NCBI GenBank assembly: GCA_002869275.1
Contig: PKTF01000078.1
Span: 1,839-65,838 of the forward strand
Direction of reading: 5' to 3'
Source of the DNA: Ignavibacteria bacterium
GTDB lineage: Bacteria; Bacteroidota; Ignavibacteria; SZUA-365
Length of the DNA stretch: 64,000 nucleotides
Shown in pieces: positions 34,647-41,519 of the stretch (position 1 is its first letter; every line of letters starts with the position of its first letter). The notes beneath the pieces are model-generated. The model saw only the letters and a list, made by a program, of their open reading frames with translations. It was not told the origin of the DNA and ran no database searches. Position numbers and translations under genes: made by a program.

Positions 34647-35891
34647 ATGCCCAAACACGTTCTTCTCGCCATATCGATCCTCACCGTTTTACTGAGTATG
34701 TACTCCGGCGCGCAGACGCGGAATATCACAAATGAGGTGGTGCGCGTGGACGCAGATTCCCTCCGCGACAGTTGGCACGCGGTACTGGCTGATGATGACG
34801 CCGCGCGGGTCTACTGTGCCTGGTCGCAACGCGAAGCGCATCGCGCTGTGATCCGCGTGGCGCTGCTCTCTCCCGGTAAAGAACATACCATTCGTCACAT
34901 CACCATTCCGCAGCCCGGCAATTGCGAAGATGTGCGTCCCGCCCTGGCATGTCTCGGGAGCGGAGTGCTGCTGGTCGCCTGGCAGCGAGGCTGTGCGGGG
35001 AGTCGCAGAATCGTGTCGCTGCTGCTCGACTCACTGCTGCAGCCCCTCGGCGAGGTCACGACGGTCGCGGGTAAAATGAACCCGGTCATGCCTTCCGCGG
35101 GATCAAACCATCGGGGCGAAGCCCTTCTCGCCTGGCAGGATTTCCGTAACGGCAATTTCGACGTGTATGCACGACGCTACGATCGAGAAGGCACACCGAT
35201 GAACAGGGATCTGCGTGTCAACAATGACGACGGCGCTGCCCTGCAGGGTCCGCCACGAGTTGCACGCGATAACAGGGATGATTTCATCGTGCTCTGGCCC
35301 GACAACCGGGAAGACGGCAAGTGGAAATTTTACGCGCAGCGTATCGAAGACGATCTTGTGGGAACGAACATGCTGGTGGATTCCGCACAACGCAAAGCGA
35401 TGACGACGCTCGCATCGGCAGTACGATTGACGCAAGACAGCGCCGTGTTCGCCTGGAAAGATTATCGCGAAGACCACAGCAATATCTATCGTCGACGAGC
35501 AGACGTTCGTATAGGCGAGTGCTCGCTGGCCGAGCGCATCAACGATGACAGCACTGCGCGGTGGCAGCGTCTCGTGGTGATCGACAGCGATGGCAGGGGG
35601 AATGCCGTGTCGTGCTGGGAGGATTACCGCAACACCGAAATCAACCAGCGTGGTGACATTTATCTGCAGCCCTTTGCCCGCGATGGCAGTTTCCTCGGTG
35701 TGAACCAGAAGGTGAACACGCGCAACGACCGCATCGCCCGAAAGATGCCGGGCATCACGATGCTGTCCGACGGCAGTTTCCTTGTGATCTGGCATCAGGG
35801 AGAGGTTGGAGCATTCAACCTTTACGGCCAGTGGTACCGGTATCCTGCCGTGCGCATCGGAGGAAATTTTTGTCTTACCTGTAACGAATGA
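34647..35891 (+). CDS. secreted hypothetical protein with ~6 tandem W-x-D-(Y/F)-R…(D/N)(I/V)Y-x-(R/Q)R repeats (beta-propeller-like)
   Basis: Signal peptide MPKHVLLAISILTVLLSMYSGAQ. Repeats LLAWQDFRNGNFDVYARRY / VLWPDNREDGKWKFYAQRI / FAWKDYREDHSNIYRRR / SCWEDYRNTEINQRGDIYLQPF. Confidence 0.55.
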   Translation: MPKHVLLAISILTVLLSMYSGAQTRNITNEVVRVDADSLRDSWHAVLADDDAARVYCAWSQREAHRAVIRVALLSPGKEHTIRHITIPQPGNCEDVRPALACLGSGVLLVAWQRGCAGSRRIVSLLLDSLLQPLGEVTTVAGKMNPVMPSAGSNHRGEALLAWQDFRNGNFDVYARRYDREGTPMNRDLRVNNDDGAALQGPPRVARDNRDDFIVLWPDNREDGKWKFYAQRIEDDLVGTNMLVDSAQRKAMTTLASAVRLTQDSAVFAWKDYREDHSNIYRRRADVRIGECSLAERINDDSTARWQRLVVIDSDGRGNAVSCWEDYRNTEINQRGDIYLQPFARDGSFLGVNQKVNTRNDRIARKMPGITMLSDGSFLVIWHQGEVGAFNLYGQWYRYPAVRIGGNFCLTCNE

Positions 35892-35903: not shown

Positions 35904-36533
35904 ATGGATAGAAGAGGATTTTTTAAACTCGGTTTTCGCCAGCTCAAGGACCAGGCTCGGAAGTCCGCTCCCGAGATCGTGCGCAAGGAGATCACACCCA
36001 CGTTGATCGATGTCACCCTGCTCACCGAACATGTGGACAAGGCCGAACGTCTCGCGGACGAACTCCTCGCAGAACATTTTGGAGAACGTTTTCTCCGTCT
36101 GAAGCAGAGCCGGTTTGAGGGGCAGCACAACGGGGGTATCGTGCTGTTCGAAGGCAGTCTGTATCGTGATTACCATGACGGTGCGTCGCTGCTGTACGCC
36201 GCACTGAGAGAAATGGAAGATGAATTACGCATACACGAAGTGCAGAACGATCCCGTCCTGTTGCGCTATGTCAACCTTCTTCCGGCATTCAGCCGTACAG
36301 CCGACGTGTATCGCAAAGGGAAGTTGGTTCAGGCTTTCCCGCTGTATGAGGACGGTGAATTTGATATCGAGGGAGAGCATGGAAGCATGCGCGTCGGCGT
36401 CAAGGACAAACGCCTGATGGTGGTGCATTCCTCCTGCCCTAACGCAACCTGTGTGGCGCACCCGCCTATCGTTACCCCTGGCCAGCGCATCACCTGCGTT
36501 CCCAATGACATTTCCATCGTGATCGGGATGTAA
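35904..36533 (+). CDS. hypothetical protein with Tat-like N-terminal motif
   Basis: MDRRGFFKLGF resembles a twin-arginine (RRxFxK) signal. No recognised domain. Confidence 0.4.
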   Translation: MDRRGFFKLGFRQLKDQARKSAPEIVRKEITPTLIDVTLLTEHVDKAERLADELLAEHFGERFLRLKQSRFEGQHNGGIVLFEGSLYRDYHDGASLLYAALREMEDELRIHEVQNDPVLLRYVNLLPAFSRTADVYRKGKLVQAFPLYEDGEFDIEGEHGSMRVGVKDKRLMVVHSSCPNATCVAHPPIVTPGQRITCVPNDISIVIGM

Positions 36534-36570
36534 AAAAAACCGGAGAGCAGTTCTCCGGTTTTTCTTTTCG
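36533..36570. terminator. bidirectional Rho-independent terminator
   Basis: A7-ccggagagcagttctccgg-T5cT4. Confidence 0.7.
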
Positions 36571-36580
36571 TTTCAGCAAA

Positions 36581-36967
36581 TCACTTGATCACCTTCTTGA
36601 TCGCATCTTCATCGAAGCCGATTGTGACTCCGTTCGGACCGCGGACAATGGGGCGTTTTATGAGCATGGGATCTGCAGAGAGCGCTGAAAGGGCTGCTGC
36701 CTTGTTCAGTCCATCGACCTTTACCTTCCAATTGCCATCCTTGTAGGCTGCACCAGAAGTGTTGAACGCCTTGCGGTAACGATCAACACTCCCAAGTGCC
36801 TGGTTGATAAGCGTCTTGGGAGGAGTTTCTTCACGGACATCGCGGAAGACGCATGCCACGCTCTTGCTCTCGAGAAACTTCAAGGCCTTCCGTGTGGTAC
36901 CGCAGGTTTTCAGTCCCCACACTTCTACAGCGTTCCCAGCTGGTGCCGGTTTCTTCACCTTGCTCAT
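36581..36967 (-). CDS. ArsC/Spx/YffB-family protein (thioredoxin-fold)
   Basis: [16 protein letters not shown]-terminal redox-motif region typical of the ArsC_YffB family. 128 aa. Confidence 0.65.
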
Positions 36968-37434
36968 TTCTTTGTCGTGCGCTTCCTTGCTGCGGGTTTC
37001 TTGACGGCCGGCTTCTTGGCGACAGCCTTCTTCGCTACGGGCTTTTTCGCGGCGGCTTTCTTGACGGCCGGCTTCTTGGCGACAGTCTTTTTCGCTGCCG
37101 GTTTCTTCGCAGCGGCTTTCTTGACGGCCGGCTTCTTGGCGACAGTCTTCTTCGCTACCGGTTTCTTCGCAGCGGCTTTCTTGACGGCCGGCTTCTTGGC
37201 GACAGTCTTCTTCGCTACCGGTTTCTTCGCAGCAGCTTTCTTGACGGCCGGCTTGCGGGCTACGGTCTTCTTTGCTGCGGCTTTCTTGACGGCAGGTTTC
37301 TTAGCAACAGCTTTTTTCACTGCCGGCTTCTTTGCCGCGGGCTTTTTCGCGGCGGGCTTTTTCGCGGCGGGCTTTCTGGCCGCCGGCTTTTTGGCCGCCG
37401 GCTTTTTCGCAGCAGTCGTTTTTGCCATGGTCAT
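36964..37434 (-). CDS. histone H1-like Lys/Ala-rich repeat nucleoid protein
   Basis: 156 aa, almost entirely (A/V/P/T)KK repeats: [20 protein letters not shown] x4-5. Stop overlaps the ArsC-family start (ATGA). Confidence 0.75.
36985..37400. repeat. 60-bp tandem DNA repeats (~5-6 copies plus degenerate flanking copies) encoding the KAP-rich repeats
   Basis: Repeating unit ttcttgacggccggcttcttggcgacagtcttcttcgctaccggtttcttcgcagcggct read directly. Confidence 0.8.
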
Positions 37435-37498
37435 TCCTCCTTGATATGAGAAGTGGGTGAATGTGACTCTGTGTCACGCTTTCATTTCTCTGATGCAA

Positions 37499-38389
37499 TC
37501 AGGATAGCGGTCGGTCCGGAGTGTATTCCTCCAGTGCCTTGCGAATCACCGCCTTTGTGGACGGATGGAAATTTCCATCAAGGATCCACTGAATATAATC
37601 GCGGTCGCGTTCGATGATTTTGGATAGAGATGTGCCACGGTGTTTGCCAAACGTTATAATAACATTATTTCCGTCTCGCACAAGTTTCCCTTCCTCGTCC
37701 AGCCACGAAGGGTCTTTCGGATGCACGACGGATTCGAGTTCGGCAATTGTATGCGGCAAATCTTCGTATCGTTCGAGCTGTGCGAACAAGACGTCGGCTG
37801 TCGCCTGCACGTCGGCCATCGCACCGTGTGCGCCGCTATGTTCGCGCGCGCAGTAGAACTGCAGTGCAGCTGAGAGGTCCCGTGGTTCACGTGAATGAAA
37901 AATCGTTTGCACGTCGATGATGTGTCGTCCTTCCAACAAGAACTTTTCGCCGCAGCGCTGAAACTCCTGCAGCAGCAGCGGCAGGTCGAAGCGTCGCAGG
38001 TTGAAACCGGAAAGGTCGCAGTTGTCGAGAAACTCGATCAGACGCGTTGCGAGTTGCTGGAAGGTGGGGGCGAGTGCAACATCGGCATCGGTAATGCCAT
38101 GCACCGCTGTGGCCTGTTCGGGAATGAGAATGGTGGGGTTGATGCGATGTTCAAAGCTGCGCGTCGTTCGATTCGGGAGATACTTCAGCACTGCGATCTC
38201 TACGATACGATCACTTTGCGTGTTGATACCGGTCGTCTCCAGATCGAAGAAGGCCAGTGGCCGCTTGAGTTCCAAAGCGTGTTGCGTCGGTGTCGACGTC
38301 ACGATGCTGAAGATACCTCCATGAGCACATGGATGGAAAAAGATGCAGCGCGGCGGGTATGAGATGTTGTCCGCCTGTTTTCTTTCCAA
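37499..38389 (-). CDS. DEDDh 3'-5' exonuclease (DnaQ/epsilon-like) with C-terminal DUF3820-like domain
   Basis: Exo I FFDLETTG, Exo II HGITDAD…, Exo III HGAMADVQATADVL. C-terminal FGKHRGTSLSKIIERDRDYIQWIL. Start uncertain. Confidence 0.7.
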   Translation of the reverse strand: MERKQADNISYPPRCIFFHPCAHGGIFSIVTSTPTQHALELKRPLAFFDLETTGINTQSDRIVEIAVLKYLPNRTTRSFEHRINPTILIPEQATAVHGITDADVALAPTFQQLATRLIEFLDNCDLSGFNLRRFDLPLLLQEFQRCGEKFLLEGRHIIDVQTIFHSREPRDLSAALQFYCAREHSGAHGAMADVQATADVLFAQLERYEDLPHTIAELESVVHPKDPSWLDEEGKLVRDGNNVIITFGKHRGTSLSKIIERDRDYIQWILDGNFHPSTKAVIRKALEEYTPDRPLS

Positions 38390-39636: not shown

Positions 39637-39933
39637 ATGCAGAAGAAAAGTTATACACGGACGGGTCGTTCCTGCCGCGTCACGTTTTACCTGCCCGCCG
39701 ATGTGAAGGCTTCGCGCGCATCGCTTTGCGGCGAATTCAACGACTGGAATCCTGATGCACATGTCATGGCAAAGAGGAAAGATGGTACGTTTTATGTTTC
39801 GCTGTATCTCGATGCAGGGAAGTCGTACCGCTATCGGTTTCTGCTTGATGATACGCGCTGGGAAAACGACTGGGAAGCAGAATCCTACATCCCCAATGAT
39901 CACGGTTCCGATGATTCATTGATCACTCTGTAA
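39637..39933 (+). CDS. stand-alone CBM48/AMPK-beta-like glycogen-binding (isoamylase N-terminal) domain protein
   Basis: VTFYLPADVKASRASLCGEFNDWNPDAHVMAKRKDGTFYVSLYLDAGKSYRYRFLLDDTRWENDW matches the CBM48 pattern. Confidence 0.6.
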   Translation: MQKKSYTRTGRSCRVTFYLPADVKASRASLCGEFNDWNPDAHVMAKRKDGTFYVSLYLDAGKSYRYRFLLDDTRWENDWEAESYIPNDHGSDDSLITL

Positions 39934-40130
39934 CAGCATCGACATCGGCGTTTGACACGGTGCCTCGCGAGGCACCGTTCGTATTATTCGTGAATCCACC
40001 GCCGCGCATCGGCATCATTCAGGAAAATAATGGGAATTTCTCCTCGAGTACGGTTGAGATAGAGTTGTTCAACGCCTACATTTCTTCTGATCGGTATGAT
40101 CATACATCACCCTCACAGAGAAGGCATCTC

Positions 40131-41519
40131 ATGCGCAGCATTTATTTCCTTGCGTTGATCGCGTGCGCCACATCGATTCTGCATGCACAGGAACATGATT
40201 TTATCGAAGGACCATTTGCATCTCCACAGGAACTGACGGAAACCTGCCTTGGCTGTCACGAAGAAGTCGGTGACGCCGTCATGGCAACGCGGCATTGGAA
40301 TTGGCTTGGAAAAGAATTCGAATCCGGTGAACGGGGCGTGATTCGCCTCGGGAAGCAGAACTTCATCAACAACTTCTGCATCGGGGTCACATCGAACTGG
40401 CCGCGCTGTACCAGCTGTCATATCAGCTACGGCTGGAAGGATGGCAGTTTTGATCACAGCGATCCGAACAACATCGACTGCCTCGTCTGCCATGACCAGA
40501 CAGGGACGTACAAAAAGACACCCACCGGAGCAGGCATGCCCGCAGAGGACGTCGATCTCGTTACCGTGGCGCAGAGCGTCGGTACGCCAACACGCGGCAA
40601 CTGCGGCGTCTGTCACTTTGACGGTGGCGGCGGGAGCGGTGTCAAGCATGGCGACATGGACGATAGCATGTATGAGCCATCGGCCGAACTTGATGTGCAC
40701 ATGGGCGGACTGGATTTCGAATGTACGGAATGCCACACAACAGAAGACCACATGATCGCAGGCGCGGGACACGGTTCGATGGCTGAGGATATCAACCATA
40801 TTTCCTGCATGGACTGTCACGACGACGAAGTGCATGAGAAGTCCATCCTGAACAACCACATCTCATCAGTCGCCTGTGAAACCTGTCACGTTCCCGCCTT
40901 CGCACGACAGGAAGCGACCAAGACCTGGTGGGACTGGTCCGCCGCGGGTGAAGACCGAGAGGCGGAAAAAGACAAGTATGGAAAGGAAACCTACAGCAAG
41001 AAAAAGGGCGAGTTTCGCTGGGAGAAAAACGTCGTTCCCACCTACAAGTGGACGCGCGGCAAGGCCGAGTATTACGTGCAGGGTGATCCGGTGAAGGCGG
41101 GCGCGGTTGTGGAGCTCAATCGTATCATCGGCGGTATCGACGATGCCGAAGCTAAAATCGCACCGTTCAAGGTGATGCGTGGCAAGCAGCCGTATGACAA
41201 GGAACACGGCATCCTGATCGTGCCGCATCTCTTCGGGAAAGACGGATACTGGAACACATATGACTGGGATTCCGCGTCACGTATCGGAATGACGGCCGCA
41301 GGACTCGACTATTCAGGATCGTACGGCTTTATCGAAACGGAGATGTCGTGGCCGATCAATCACATGGTGGCACCTGCGAAACAGGCACTGCGCTGTACGA
41401 GCTGTCACGGAAAGCGCGGAGAGCGCCGCCTGGATTGGAAGGCGCTCGGATACCGGAAGGATCCCATCACCCGCGGGACGCGTTTCGAGCAGGGATTGGC
41501 CAAAGCTCCCGAAGAATAG
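40131..41519 (+). CDS. octaheme c-type cytochrome, tetrathionate-reductase (OTR) family-like, periplasmic
   Basis: Signal peptide MRSIYFLALIACATSILHA. Eight CxxCH motifs: CLGCH, CTSCH, CLVCH, CGVCH, CTECH, CMDCH, CETCH, CTSCH. No T9SS tail. Gly-rich CHFDGGGGSGVKHG segment as in OTR-type proteins. Confidence 0.7.
   Translation: MRSIYFLALIACATSILHAQEHDFIEGPFASPQELTETCLGCHEEVGDAVMATRHWNWLGKEFESGERGVIRLGKQNFINNFCIGVTSNWPRCTSCHISYGWKDGSFDHSDPNNIDCLVCHDQTGTYKKTPTGAGMPAEDVDLVTVAQSVGTPTRGNCGVCHFDGGGGSGVKHGDMDDSMYEPSAELDVHMGGLDFECTECHTTEDHMIAGAGHGSMAEDINHISCMDCHDDEVHEKSILNNHISSVACETCHVPAFARQEATKTWWDWSAAGEDREAEKDKYGKETYSKKKGEFRWEKNVVPTYKWTRGKAEYYVQGDPVKAGAVVELNRIIGGIDDAEAKIAPFKVMRGKQPYDKEHGILIVPHLFGKDGYWNTYDWDSASRIGMTAAGLDYSGSYGFIETEMSWPINHMVAPAKQALRCTSCHGKRGERRLDWKALGYRKDPITRGTRFEQGLAKAPEE

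Follow-up and report, generated by a model that had tools for sequence, protein, structure and literature searches.

A lysine/alanine-rich tail and an ArsC-like protein, fused or split, beside an exonuclease gene in Ignavibacteria and their relatives

An overlapping gene pair and its fused orthologues

The stretch of DNA considered here, called the window, comprises 64,000 nucleotides (nt) of contig PKTF01000078.1 from an Ignavibacteria bacterium (assembly GCA_002869275.1, positions 1,839 to 65,838). On its minus strand lies a row of three genes. It leads from an exonuclease gene through a lysine/alanine-rich open reading frame (KA ORF; 36964..37428, 154 amino acids (aa)), which is composed of Lys/Ala/Pro/Val pentamer repeats of the Hc2/BpH1 type, to an ORF for a monothiol protein of the ArsC/YffB/Spx fold (36581..36967, 128 aa, motif G18-x3-C22-x3-R26), here called the ArsC-like protein. 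The last two ORFs overlap: in the ATGA at 36964..36967, the TGA stop codon of the KA ORF shares letters with the ATG start codon of the ArsC-like ORF. An earlier note on this DNA had described a 156-aa Lys/Ala repeat ORF generated by 60-bp repeats and its ATGA overlap with a gene of the ArsC/Spx/YffB family. Both are present, as is evident from Tandem Repeats Finder, the ORF itself and a match of the second protein to Pfam ArsC (PF03960, 56.7 bits vs. a cutoff of 24).

With the ArsC-like ORF as query, a protein search gave 28 relatives in total; loci and proteins taken up for comparison are labelled L and P, respectively. In four relatives (P0004, P0007, P0008, and P0027; 183–211 aa), a KA tail precedes the ArsC-like domain within one polypeptide. 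Fused orthologues also occupy a genomic slot identical to that of the window pair, namely in L002 (207 aa), L008/L044 (239 aa), L009/L046 (240 aa), L045 (234 aa), L007 (partial), and P0007. The slot consists of CorA and the exonuclease, the gene or gene pair in question in the same direction, and then a NusG_II-domain gene facing it, a gene for a 414-aa protein, and UvrA; the fuller shared neighbourhood includes a multihaem cytochrome and a CBM48 gene beside CorA. The H1-like tail and the small folded domain are covalently joined in P0007, P0008, P0149, L008, L044, L045, and L046, and are separate ORFs in the window. Since the syntenic slot in relatives holds one fused gene, the window pair can be considered the split form of a two-module protein.

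The split form itself occurs in several variants. The junction is ATGA in the window, L001, and L041 and GTGA in L042 and L043, and in L004/L005 the two ORFs are parted by TAA-tc-TTG. In every split form, the ArsC frame stands at −1 relative to the KA frame, and the KA ORF ends with R-T-[T/S]-K-K in four of the NTGA forms. Three additional assemblies of this organism (L047–L049) have the 4-nt overlap as well, and because it is reproduced there, the split junction is no assembly error. Split junctions are also conserved in lineages at 62–82% protein identity. A further fusion, P0027/L003, lies in a distant branch with different neighbours and is independent. Beyond the KA clade and P0027, a representative search for N-terminal extensions on ArsC-like proteins found none that were Lys/Ala-rich.

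Among bacterial operons, no coupling arrangement is commoner than a 4-nt NTGA overlap. A well-placed Shine-Dalgarno sequence is lacking before the ArsC-like ORF, and for this reason, termination-reinitiation at AUGA or GUGA is the most likely mode of translation of this ORF.

In a neighbour-joining tree of ArsC-like domains (116 columns), the KA-associated sequences are monophyletic, with a bootstrap value of 94. The fused L002/L009/P0007 group has as its sister (95) L043, which is split; separate branches are formed by L007/L008, a fused pair (82), and by the group of L004, which is split (100). Because fused and split states are interleaved in this way, at least two fusion or fission events are needed. 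The RT[T/S]KK-stop/NTGA junction is shared on both sides of the clade, which makes a split ancestor with later fusions the more parsimonious order, though a tentative one at internal supports of 52–64. Among the split forms, the ratio of nonsynonymous to synonymous substitution (dN/dS) in the ArsC ORF is 0.11–0.13 at dS 0.5–0.85, and the ORF retains all family-invariant residues. It is under purifying selection within the split lineage.

The lysine/alanine-rich protein and its repeats

From its first ATG, the KA ORF extends over 36964..37434 on the minus strand and has 156 codons for amino acids. This first ATG (37434) varies among orthologues, and the second (37428) is invariant and sits 7 nt after GGAGG. 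According to the alignment of orthologous leaders, the second ATG is the conserved start, and the protein begins with MAKT and has 154 aa (15.8 kDa, pI 12, net charge of approximately +62). Lysine accounts for 38% of its residues, alanine for 33%, proline for 11%, and valine for 10%; acidic and aromatic residues are completely lacking. A single-sequence AlphaFold2 model, which is weak evidence for a protein of this kind, contains no secondary structure (predicted template modelling score of 0.12), and the protein is predicted to have no globular fold.

The histone-like kinship proposed in the earlier note stood in one respect and fell in another. The pentamers are of the Hc2/BpH1 type, and Pfam HC2 (PF07382) matches residues 7–152 with 87.4 bits (gathering score of 40), but the Pfam scan gave no match at E ≤ 0.1 to Hc1 (PF07432), nor to linker histone H1 (PF00538). 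The HC2 match is driven by low-complexity composition. The protein scores below the cutoffs of the curated NCBIfam models for Hc2 (NF038052; 63.3 vs. 135) and for Burkholderiales H1-like proteins (NF038053; 57.9 vs. 80), and its likeness to Hc2 and BpH1 is therefore mainly compositional. A search with the KA protein returned compositionally similar tails on many unrelated domains and no orthologues. HC2-like tails were found on DksA, CarD, RsfS, HU, SWIB, RHH, HTH, and phasin proteins; they were frequent on the ribosome silencing factor RsfS, and those linked to CarD and DksA were among the best matches. As a module, KA tails are promiscuous. The rest of the 64-kb window contains no further KA ORFs.

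A tandem repeat with a period of 60 bp (36992..37287, 4.9 copies, 91% matches; Tandem Repeats Finder) underlies the protein, and one repeat unit corresponds to 20 aa, i.e., four pentamers. All frames of such a repeat are open, and the long open frames opposite the KA ORF are its by-products. The KA frame itself is no artefact, as the earlier note had expected: the AAGGAGG sequence and the ATG are conserved, the same reading frame is preserved in at least 12 loci, and in every locus covering the whole KA ORF it is unbroken between the conserved ATG, with its conserved Shine-Dalgarno sequence, and the junction. A frame artefact was accordingly rejected. The exact KA sequence, from either start, is absent from a collection of approximately 15 billion proteins in which the neighbouring ArsC-like protein is present (PLX32259.1), so the KA ORF was apparently never called as a gene in this metagenome-assembled genome (MAG). 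The three other short-read assemblies of the organism (L047–L049) end inside the 60-bp repeat. Because the repeat breaks short-read assemblies and gene calling missed the KA ORF, genes of this type are probably under-counted.

The length of the tail ranges from approximately 80 to 189 aa across lineages, and the most recent repeat units are lineage-specific: 60 bp in the window and L004, approximately 63 bp in L008, and 18 bp in L009. Length polymorphism between strains, predicted in the earlier note, can be seen directly. L045 and L009/L046 have flanks that are 99.5–100% identical, and their coding sequences differ only by one 18-bp KKKAAP unit. This is strain-level variation in copy number, as known for Hc2 and BpH1 (PMC2848022).

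In a distant relative from a MAG labelled Chromatiales (L018, 2736–3056), an Ala/Lys/Pro-rich ORF (MAAKPKAEKAVKPAAKP...) is located just 5' of the ArsC-like domain; a run of N covers the junction between tail and domain, and the two may be fused or split.

Fold and class of the ArsC-like protein

The ArsC-like ORF is identical to PLX32259.1, which is named 'MAG: transcriptional regulator [Ignavibacteria bacterium]'; relatives are named 'Spx/MgsR family RNA polymerase-binding regulatory protein' by NCBI. Its AlphaFold2 model has a mean predicted local distance difference test score of 88.7, with residues 1–10 disordered. Foldseek matched the model to 3FZ4, 1RW1, 3GKX, 1S3C, and 1Z3E with E-values of 5e-8 to 1e-5, and 3RDW and 2M46 are also among its matches, which include YffB (1RW1), E. 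coli ArsC, and Spx; for 3GKX of B. fragilis, the template modelling score is 0.78. The fold superposes on the structures of Spx in complex with the C-terminal domain of the RNA polymerase alpha subunit (alpha-CTD; 1Z3E and 7F75). Spx, ArsC, and YffB scored approximately equally in the structure search, which therefore did not tell them apart. Among solved structures, the CXXC-type protein 2M46 is closest in sequence (E = 3e-13), followed by YffB (1e-6) and Spx (4e-3). The wider family found in the exhaustive search is also of the CXXC type (CSTCRKA), and the second cysteine is replaced in the KA-related clade.

Around the conserved cysteine, the protein reads C22-G-T-T25, and C22 is the single conserved cysteine; Spx C10 aligns with C22 and Spx C13 with T25, a column that is Thr in at least 90% of the 28 relatives. 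In an alignment that is approximate at 22% identity, Spx Gly52 falls on R63, in a variable column, and Spx Arg60 on the invariant N-T-S segment. Gly52, at the alpha-CTD interface, and Arg60 are given in the numbering of B. subtilis Spx. The C-terminal ClpXP degron region of Spx is also missing. With respect to E. coli ArsC, C12 and R16 correspond to C22 and R26, and H8 is replaced by G18. Of the arginine triad Arg60/Arg94/Arg107, only Arg94 is matched (R105), with N69 in place of R60 and F118 in place of R107.

YffB proteins are characterized by a single cysteine in G-x3-C-x3-K/R and by one arginine of the triad (PMC3169414). The ArsC-like protein has this pattern, with G18-x3-C22-x3-R26 and R105 as the sole triad arginine. 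Among NCBIfam models, TIGR01617 is its best match and is narrowly missed (69.3 vs. a cutoff of 75.05). The Spx models score 25.1 vs. 123 (NF002459) and 18.1 vs. 159 (NF009210), the YffB equivalog model NF008107 scores 45.1 vs. 121, and the arsenate reductase model TIGR00014 scores 31 vs. 106. An identity as a CXXC redox-switch Spx was rejected, as the second cysteine is replaced by threonine, Gly52 and Arg60 are not conserved, and the Spx models are far below their cutoffs; the link to redox-sensing Spx regulators suggested in the earlier note is not supported. An arsenate reductase was likewise rejected: the equivalents of Cys12 and Arg16 are present, but only one of three triad arginines is, and the model score is low. 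Because CXXC and two of the three ArsC arginines are absent, the sequence places the protein in a YffB-like class, and it is best described as a monothiol ArsC/YffB-like protein.

The exonuclease and the gene neighbourhood

The gene upstream of the KA ORF (37499..38302, minus strand) encodes a DEDDh 3'-5' exonuclease with an RNase_T domain (91.9 bits) and an ExoX-like C-terminal domain (ExoX-like_C, 26.9 bits; Pfam). Its mechanical ORF extends to 38389; comparison with the L004 orthologue indicates a GTG at 38302 (VTSTPTQ...) as the probable start. Gene neighbours were surveyed with tblastn, in which the genes around the pair in the window were compared with all fetched loci. In all nine KA-clade loci that reach far enough upstream, the exonuclease immediately precedes the ArsC-like gene or gene pair on the same strand. 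The adjacency of exonuclease and ArsC-like gene is also found in six tail-less relatives (L010, L011, L013, L015, L017, and L021), whose ArsC-like proteins are 48–58% identical to that of the window. In two of them, L015 and L017, the stop codon of the exonuclease overlaps the start codon of the ArsC-like gene as ATGA. CorA is still upstream in L010 and L011. In all six, the NusG_II gene is no longer beside the ArsC-like gene, and the genes for the 414-aa protein and UvrA are absent within the fetched flanks.

The KA ORF is absent in the tail-less relatives, and the Myxococcota homologues have neither the adjacent exonuclease nor a KA ORF. Conservation of the gene pair as neighbours across the Fibrobacteres–Chlorobi–Bacteroidetes (FCB) genomes, which the earlier note had proposed as a check, thus holds throughout the KA clade, with fusion in several members, but not beyond it. 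As the adjacency persists in tail-less relatives, the conserved unit is the exonuclease and the ArsC-like gene. The KA ORF or tail was inserted between the two in one clade. The DNA-related context of the exonuclease makes the gain of a nucleic-acid-binding tail understandable. Literature searches for an operon of an ArsC-family gene and an exonuclease gene found nothing relevant, and this gene pair seems to be undescribed.

Several other genes belong to this neighbourhood. The gene convergent with the ArsC-like gene (35904–36533, plus strand) encodes a 209-aa protein whose sole match is a C-terminal NusG domain II (PF07009). It adjoins the 414-aa ORF (34647–35891, plus strand) throughout the KA clade, at 53–70% identity of the latter, which has no Pfam match, is repeat-like, and is rich in W, D, and R. 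Near CorA, there are genes for a small CBM48-like protein (39637–39933, plus strand) and for a multihaem cytochrome with several CxxCH motifs (39960–41519, plus strand); both are syntenic in L002 and L004.

Leader, palindrome, and terminator

The palindrome GTGACTCTGTGTCAC lies at 37463–37477, in the 64-nt gap (71 nt to the conserved ATG) between the exonuclease and KA genes. It is an inverted repeat of the form GTGAC-N5-GTCAC (minus strand; coding strand GTGACACAGAGTCAC), 28 nt from the first KA ATG and 34 nt from the conserved one. Its occurrence in the window is weak evidence by itself, with one match vs. 0.13 expected and at least one match in 12 of 100 shuffles. At the same position, however, it is found in nine further orthologous loci (L002, L004, L005, L008, L009, L042, L044, L045, and L046). 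The arms are invariant across orthologues and the spacer sequence varies; the spacer is 5 nt long in most loci and 7 nt in L043, which keeps the arms. The palindrome is followed by a C/U-rich leader (aTTCACCCACtTCTCAtaTC) and the Shine-Dalgarno sequence AAGGAGG at 37436–37442 (37429..37462 in total, minus strand). Aligned across five orthologous loci, the leader GTGAC-N5-GTCAC-TCTCACCCACGTCTCACTTCAAGGAGGAA hardly varies between the palindrome and the KA start. This near-invariance holds between loci whose ArsC-like proteins are only approximately 60% identical, whereas the neighbouring exonuclease gene diverges at its 3' end.

The earlier note had regarded the palindrome as a candidate operator in the promoter of the gene pair. 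It is present and conserved, but its role as a promoter operator is not borne out. Since the exonuclease and the ArsC-like gene form a conserved unit, the palindrome is located inside an operon rather than in 'the promoter'. A sigma-70 promoter scan of the coding strand upstream of the KA ORF, with a tool that does not cover FCB-type promoters, found none, and none was seen by eye as a TTTG/TAnnTTTG pair. The window contains a single exact copy, and one site with one mismatch is within chance expectation; in the flanks of 49 loci, only orthologous copies occur, with no sign of a regulon. As RNA, the palindrome has a 5-bp stem and a 5-nt loop, and because the spacer varies between 5 and 7 nt, an RNA hairpin fits better than a dimer operator with fixed spacing. 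The fold of the leader RNA as a whole is no better than that of shuffles (z = −0.18). An Rfam scan of 36400–37700 at E ≤ 1 gave no match for the leader and only weak matches for the terminator hairpin.

This terminator (36532..36566), a bidirectional intrinsic hairpin of the form CCGGAGA-ACTGC-TCTCCGG with a T-run on the minus strand and a T-rich tail on the plus strand, closes the ArsC-like unit and is common to the convergent NusG_II-domain gene.

In a tail-less clade, the gap between the exonuclease and the ArsC-like gene holds a different conserved repeat with GATATC, GGATGCGATATCGGAyyGTGATATCC (L011, approximately 2955–3015; L021, approximately 1027–1082). The intergenic position may carry a structured element in more than one lineage.

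Comparison with known systems

The closest analogues are DdbA and proteins of the CarD type, in which a small domain that binds RNA polymerase carries an H1-like tail. The best studied of the analogues, DdbA (SCO2075) from Streptomyces coelicolor, consists of an N-terminal H1-like Lys/Ala-rich DNA-binding region of variable length and a small C-terminal domain, and its tail alone binds DNA in electrophoretic mobility shift assays (PMC3643593). The C-terminal domain of DdbA belongs to a family acting on RNA polymerase, and P0008, P0149, and L008 have the same layout of an N-terminal tail and a small domain. The partner domain is DksA-like in DdbA, whereas it has the ArsC/YffB/Spx fold here. Moreover, DdbA is always one protein and comes from Actinomycetota, whereas the locus described here belongs to Ignavibacteria/Bacteroidota and is either fused or present as two overlapping ORFs. 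In myxobacterial CarD variants, an H1-like domain takes the place of the HMGA domain (PMID 19666574, as cited in PMC4374960). The fused forms are an analogue of this DdbA/CarD group and not a member, as their partner is PF03960 and not a DksA-like or CarD_CdnL_TRCF domain. Literature searches for an H1-like tail with an Spx or ArsC fold found nothing relevant.

Other polycationic proteins share single features with the locus. Chlamydial Hc2 (hctB) and Bordetella BpH1 consist of pentamers in direct succession, each with two basic residues and three that are A, V, T, or P, and their longer repeat units vary in copy number between strains (PMC2848022). The KA protein resembles them in passing Pfam HC2, in its 20-aa units of four pentamers, and in the copy variation of an orthologue, but Hc2 and BpH1 are encoded by stand-alone genes that are neither paired nor fused with an ArsC-fold gene. 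The KPAA tail of AlgP binds DNA and associates with polyphosphate (polyP) granules (PMC9239181), and the disordered KPAA region of PhaF binds RNA upstream of Shine-Dalgarno sequences, in mRNA leaders (PMC12818456). In CarD, AlgP, and PhaF, a low-complexity polycationic tail enables a separate domain to bind nucleic acids or other polyanions non-specifically, as proposed here. Their tails are C-terminal and joined to other partner domains, whereas the tail of the fused forms is N-terminal. To our knowledge, no protein of the CarD/AlgP/PhaF type is split with a translational overlap.

As for the second module, YffB (1RW1, 2KOK) shares with it the thioredoxin-like ArsC fold, the single cysteine in G-x3-C-x3-(K/R), and one residue of the triad. 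It differs from YffB in its score against the equivalog model (45 vs. 121) and in its nearest sequence relatives, which are CXXC-type 'ArsC_like' proteins such as 2M46. We know of no glutathione binding in the ArsC-like clade. With Spx/MgsR, the ArsC-like protein has in common the fold, the position of the N-terminal cysteine, and TIGR01617 as the best-scoring NCBIfam model; CXXC, Gly52, Arg60, and the C-terminal ClpXP degron region set Spx/MgsR apart.

Interpretation

The locus is most readily understood as a split two-module protein inside an exonuclease operon. As an account of architecture and of joint function, this reading is probably correct; for any specific biochemical activity of the KA/ArsC-like pair, our confidence is much lower. 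The same-strand row would be read from the exonuclease through the KA and ArsC-like genes to the terminator. The first module would be an unfolded polycationic chain of the Hc2/BpH1 type (154 aa, +62) that, by analogy, binds polyanions non-specifically, with DNA as its most likely partner. The second would be a thioredoxin-fold ArsC/YffB-like domain whose one conserved cysteine may support thiol chemistry. In sister lineages, the first module is the N-terminal tail of the second and would hold it on nucleic acid, and in the window lineage the two would be made as separate polypeptides from one mRNA. The strong and conserved Shine-Dalgarno sequence would drive the KA ORF, and the ArsC-like ORF would most likely be translated by termination-reinitiation at AUGA, which would tie its output to that of the tail. 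Because they are fused in sister lineages, the KA and ArsC-like proteins probably work together on nucleic acid. The older and more widely kept partner of the ArsC-like gene is the upstream DnaQ/ExoX-type exonuclease, and for this reason, the ArsC-like protein probably takes part in a DNA-linked process. The tail would be a later addition, providing nucleic-acid affinity in cis or in trans.

The earlier note had proposed a redox-linked pair for nucleoid remodelling, in which an Spx-type thiol switch works with an H1-like compaction protein and the palindrome is the promoter operator. The pair is indeed real and functionally linked, given its fused orthologues and monophyletic clade. The Spx labels have their grounds in the NCBI names of relatives, in TIGR01617 as the best NCBIfam match (69.3 bits), and in the superposition on Spx-alphaCTD structures (1Z3E, 7F75), and the arms of the palindrome are invariant. 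DdbA and CarD show that an H1-like tail on an RNA-polymerase-binding domain is workable (PMC3643593; for CarD, PMID 19666574 as cited in PMC4374960). However, a redox Spx without CXXC (Thr in at least 90%), without conserved Gly52 and Arg60, and with Spx model scores of 17–25 bits vs. 123–159 is hard to sustain; an operator, in turn, would lie within a conserved gene row, with no sigma-70-like promoter found on the coding strand, spacers of 5 and 7 nt, and no second copy in the window or in the flanks of the 49 loci. This proposal is therefore considered unlikely. Instead of the nucleoid, the partner of the tail might be RNA, polyphosphate, or the ribosome, and the tail would then act in the manner of the KPAA region of PhaF, which binds mRNA leaders and activates translation, or of AlgP. 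What is known of these two proteins (PMC12818456, PMC9239181) and the frequent HC2-like tails on RsfS speak for such a role. It appears improbable next to a conserved partner gene for a DNA-type DEDDh exonuclease, with UvrA in the neighbourhood and a repeat that is the KK-containing Hc2 pentamer and not KPAA (PMC2848022).

Two further explanations concern the junction. A programmed −1 frameshift at AAG-AAR-UGA would make the fused protein in split genomes too. The ArsC frame is at −1 of the KA frame in all split forms, five of six junctions have AAG-AAR-TGA, with a Lys codon before UGA, and fused products clearly function in sister lineages. Against this, the junctions do not share a slippery site: two of the five NTGA junctions have A_AAG, and none has an X_XXY_YYZ heptamer. 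In the L004 junction, the ArsC frame has a TAA stop two codons ahead of the TTG start, so that a shift could hardly be accommodated, and on reading the junction sequences, none of which were folded, no conserved downstream structure was noticed. Frameshifting is accordingly judged very unlikely. The split could also stem from an error in sequencing or from a frameshift that recently inactivated the gene, or the repeat could have produced the KA frame as an artefact, given that repeats are prone to indels, that short-read assemblies break there, and that all frames of the repeat are open. This has hardly any probability left. The junction is identical in four assemblies and conserved at 62–82% identity, dN/dS is approximately 0.12, and the KA frame is intact, so the readings as a pseudogene, an assembly error, or a frame artefact were rejected, contradicted as they are by dN/dS and replicate assemblies.

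Several points nevertheless weigh against the split two-module protein as set out above. MAGs or metagenomes are the source of all the loci and proteins compared. Synteny with the exonuclease does not extend beyond one FCB-related group, and shared ancestry could partly explain it. For every curated subfamily model, the score of the ArsC-like domain stays below the trusted cutoff, and the direction of change, fusion or fission, depends on the 116-column neighbour-joining tree, with its internal supports of 52–64, and on the shared junction. Furthermore, DNA is not the sole candidate partner of KA tails, which may bind RNA, as in PhaF (PMC12818456), or associate with polyP granules, as in AlgP (PMC9239181).

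A bolder proposal is put forward only tentatively. The exonuclease, the KA tail, and the monothiol ArsC-fold protein may constitute an unrecognised DNA-linked module of Ignavibacteria and FCB relatives, in which the ArsC-fold protein would work with the exonuclease or, as DdbA and CarD do, with RNA polymerase, and in which the tether would have been added recently in one clade and toggled between cis and trans. If true, the locus would be a natural experiment on the need for covalent attachment of a disordered polycationic tail.

H1-like polycationic tails are a reusable bacterial module, as seen in DdbA, CarD, AlgP, PhaF, and HupB, and the ArsC/YffB/Spx fold is a new partner for them. Closely related genomes carry the same two parts fused or overlapping, with both arrangements under selection. 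They offer a comparison system for asking whether the tail works in trans and what the widespread ArsC_like subfamily does, and the conserved exonuclease operon is a first functional lead for this subfamily.

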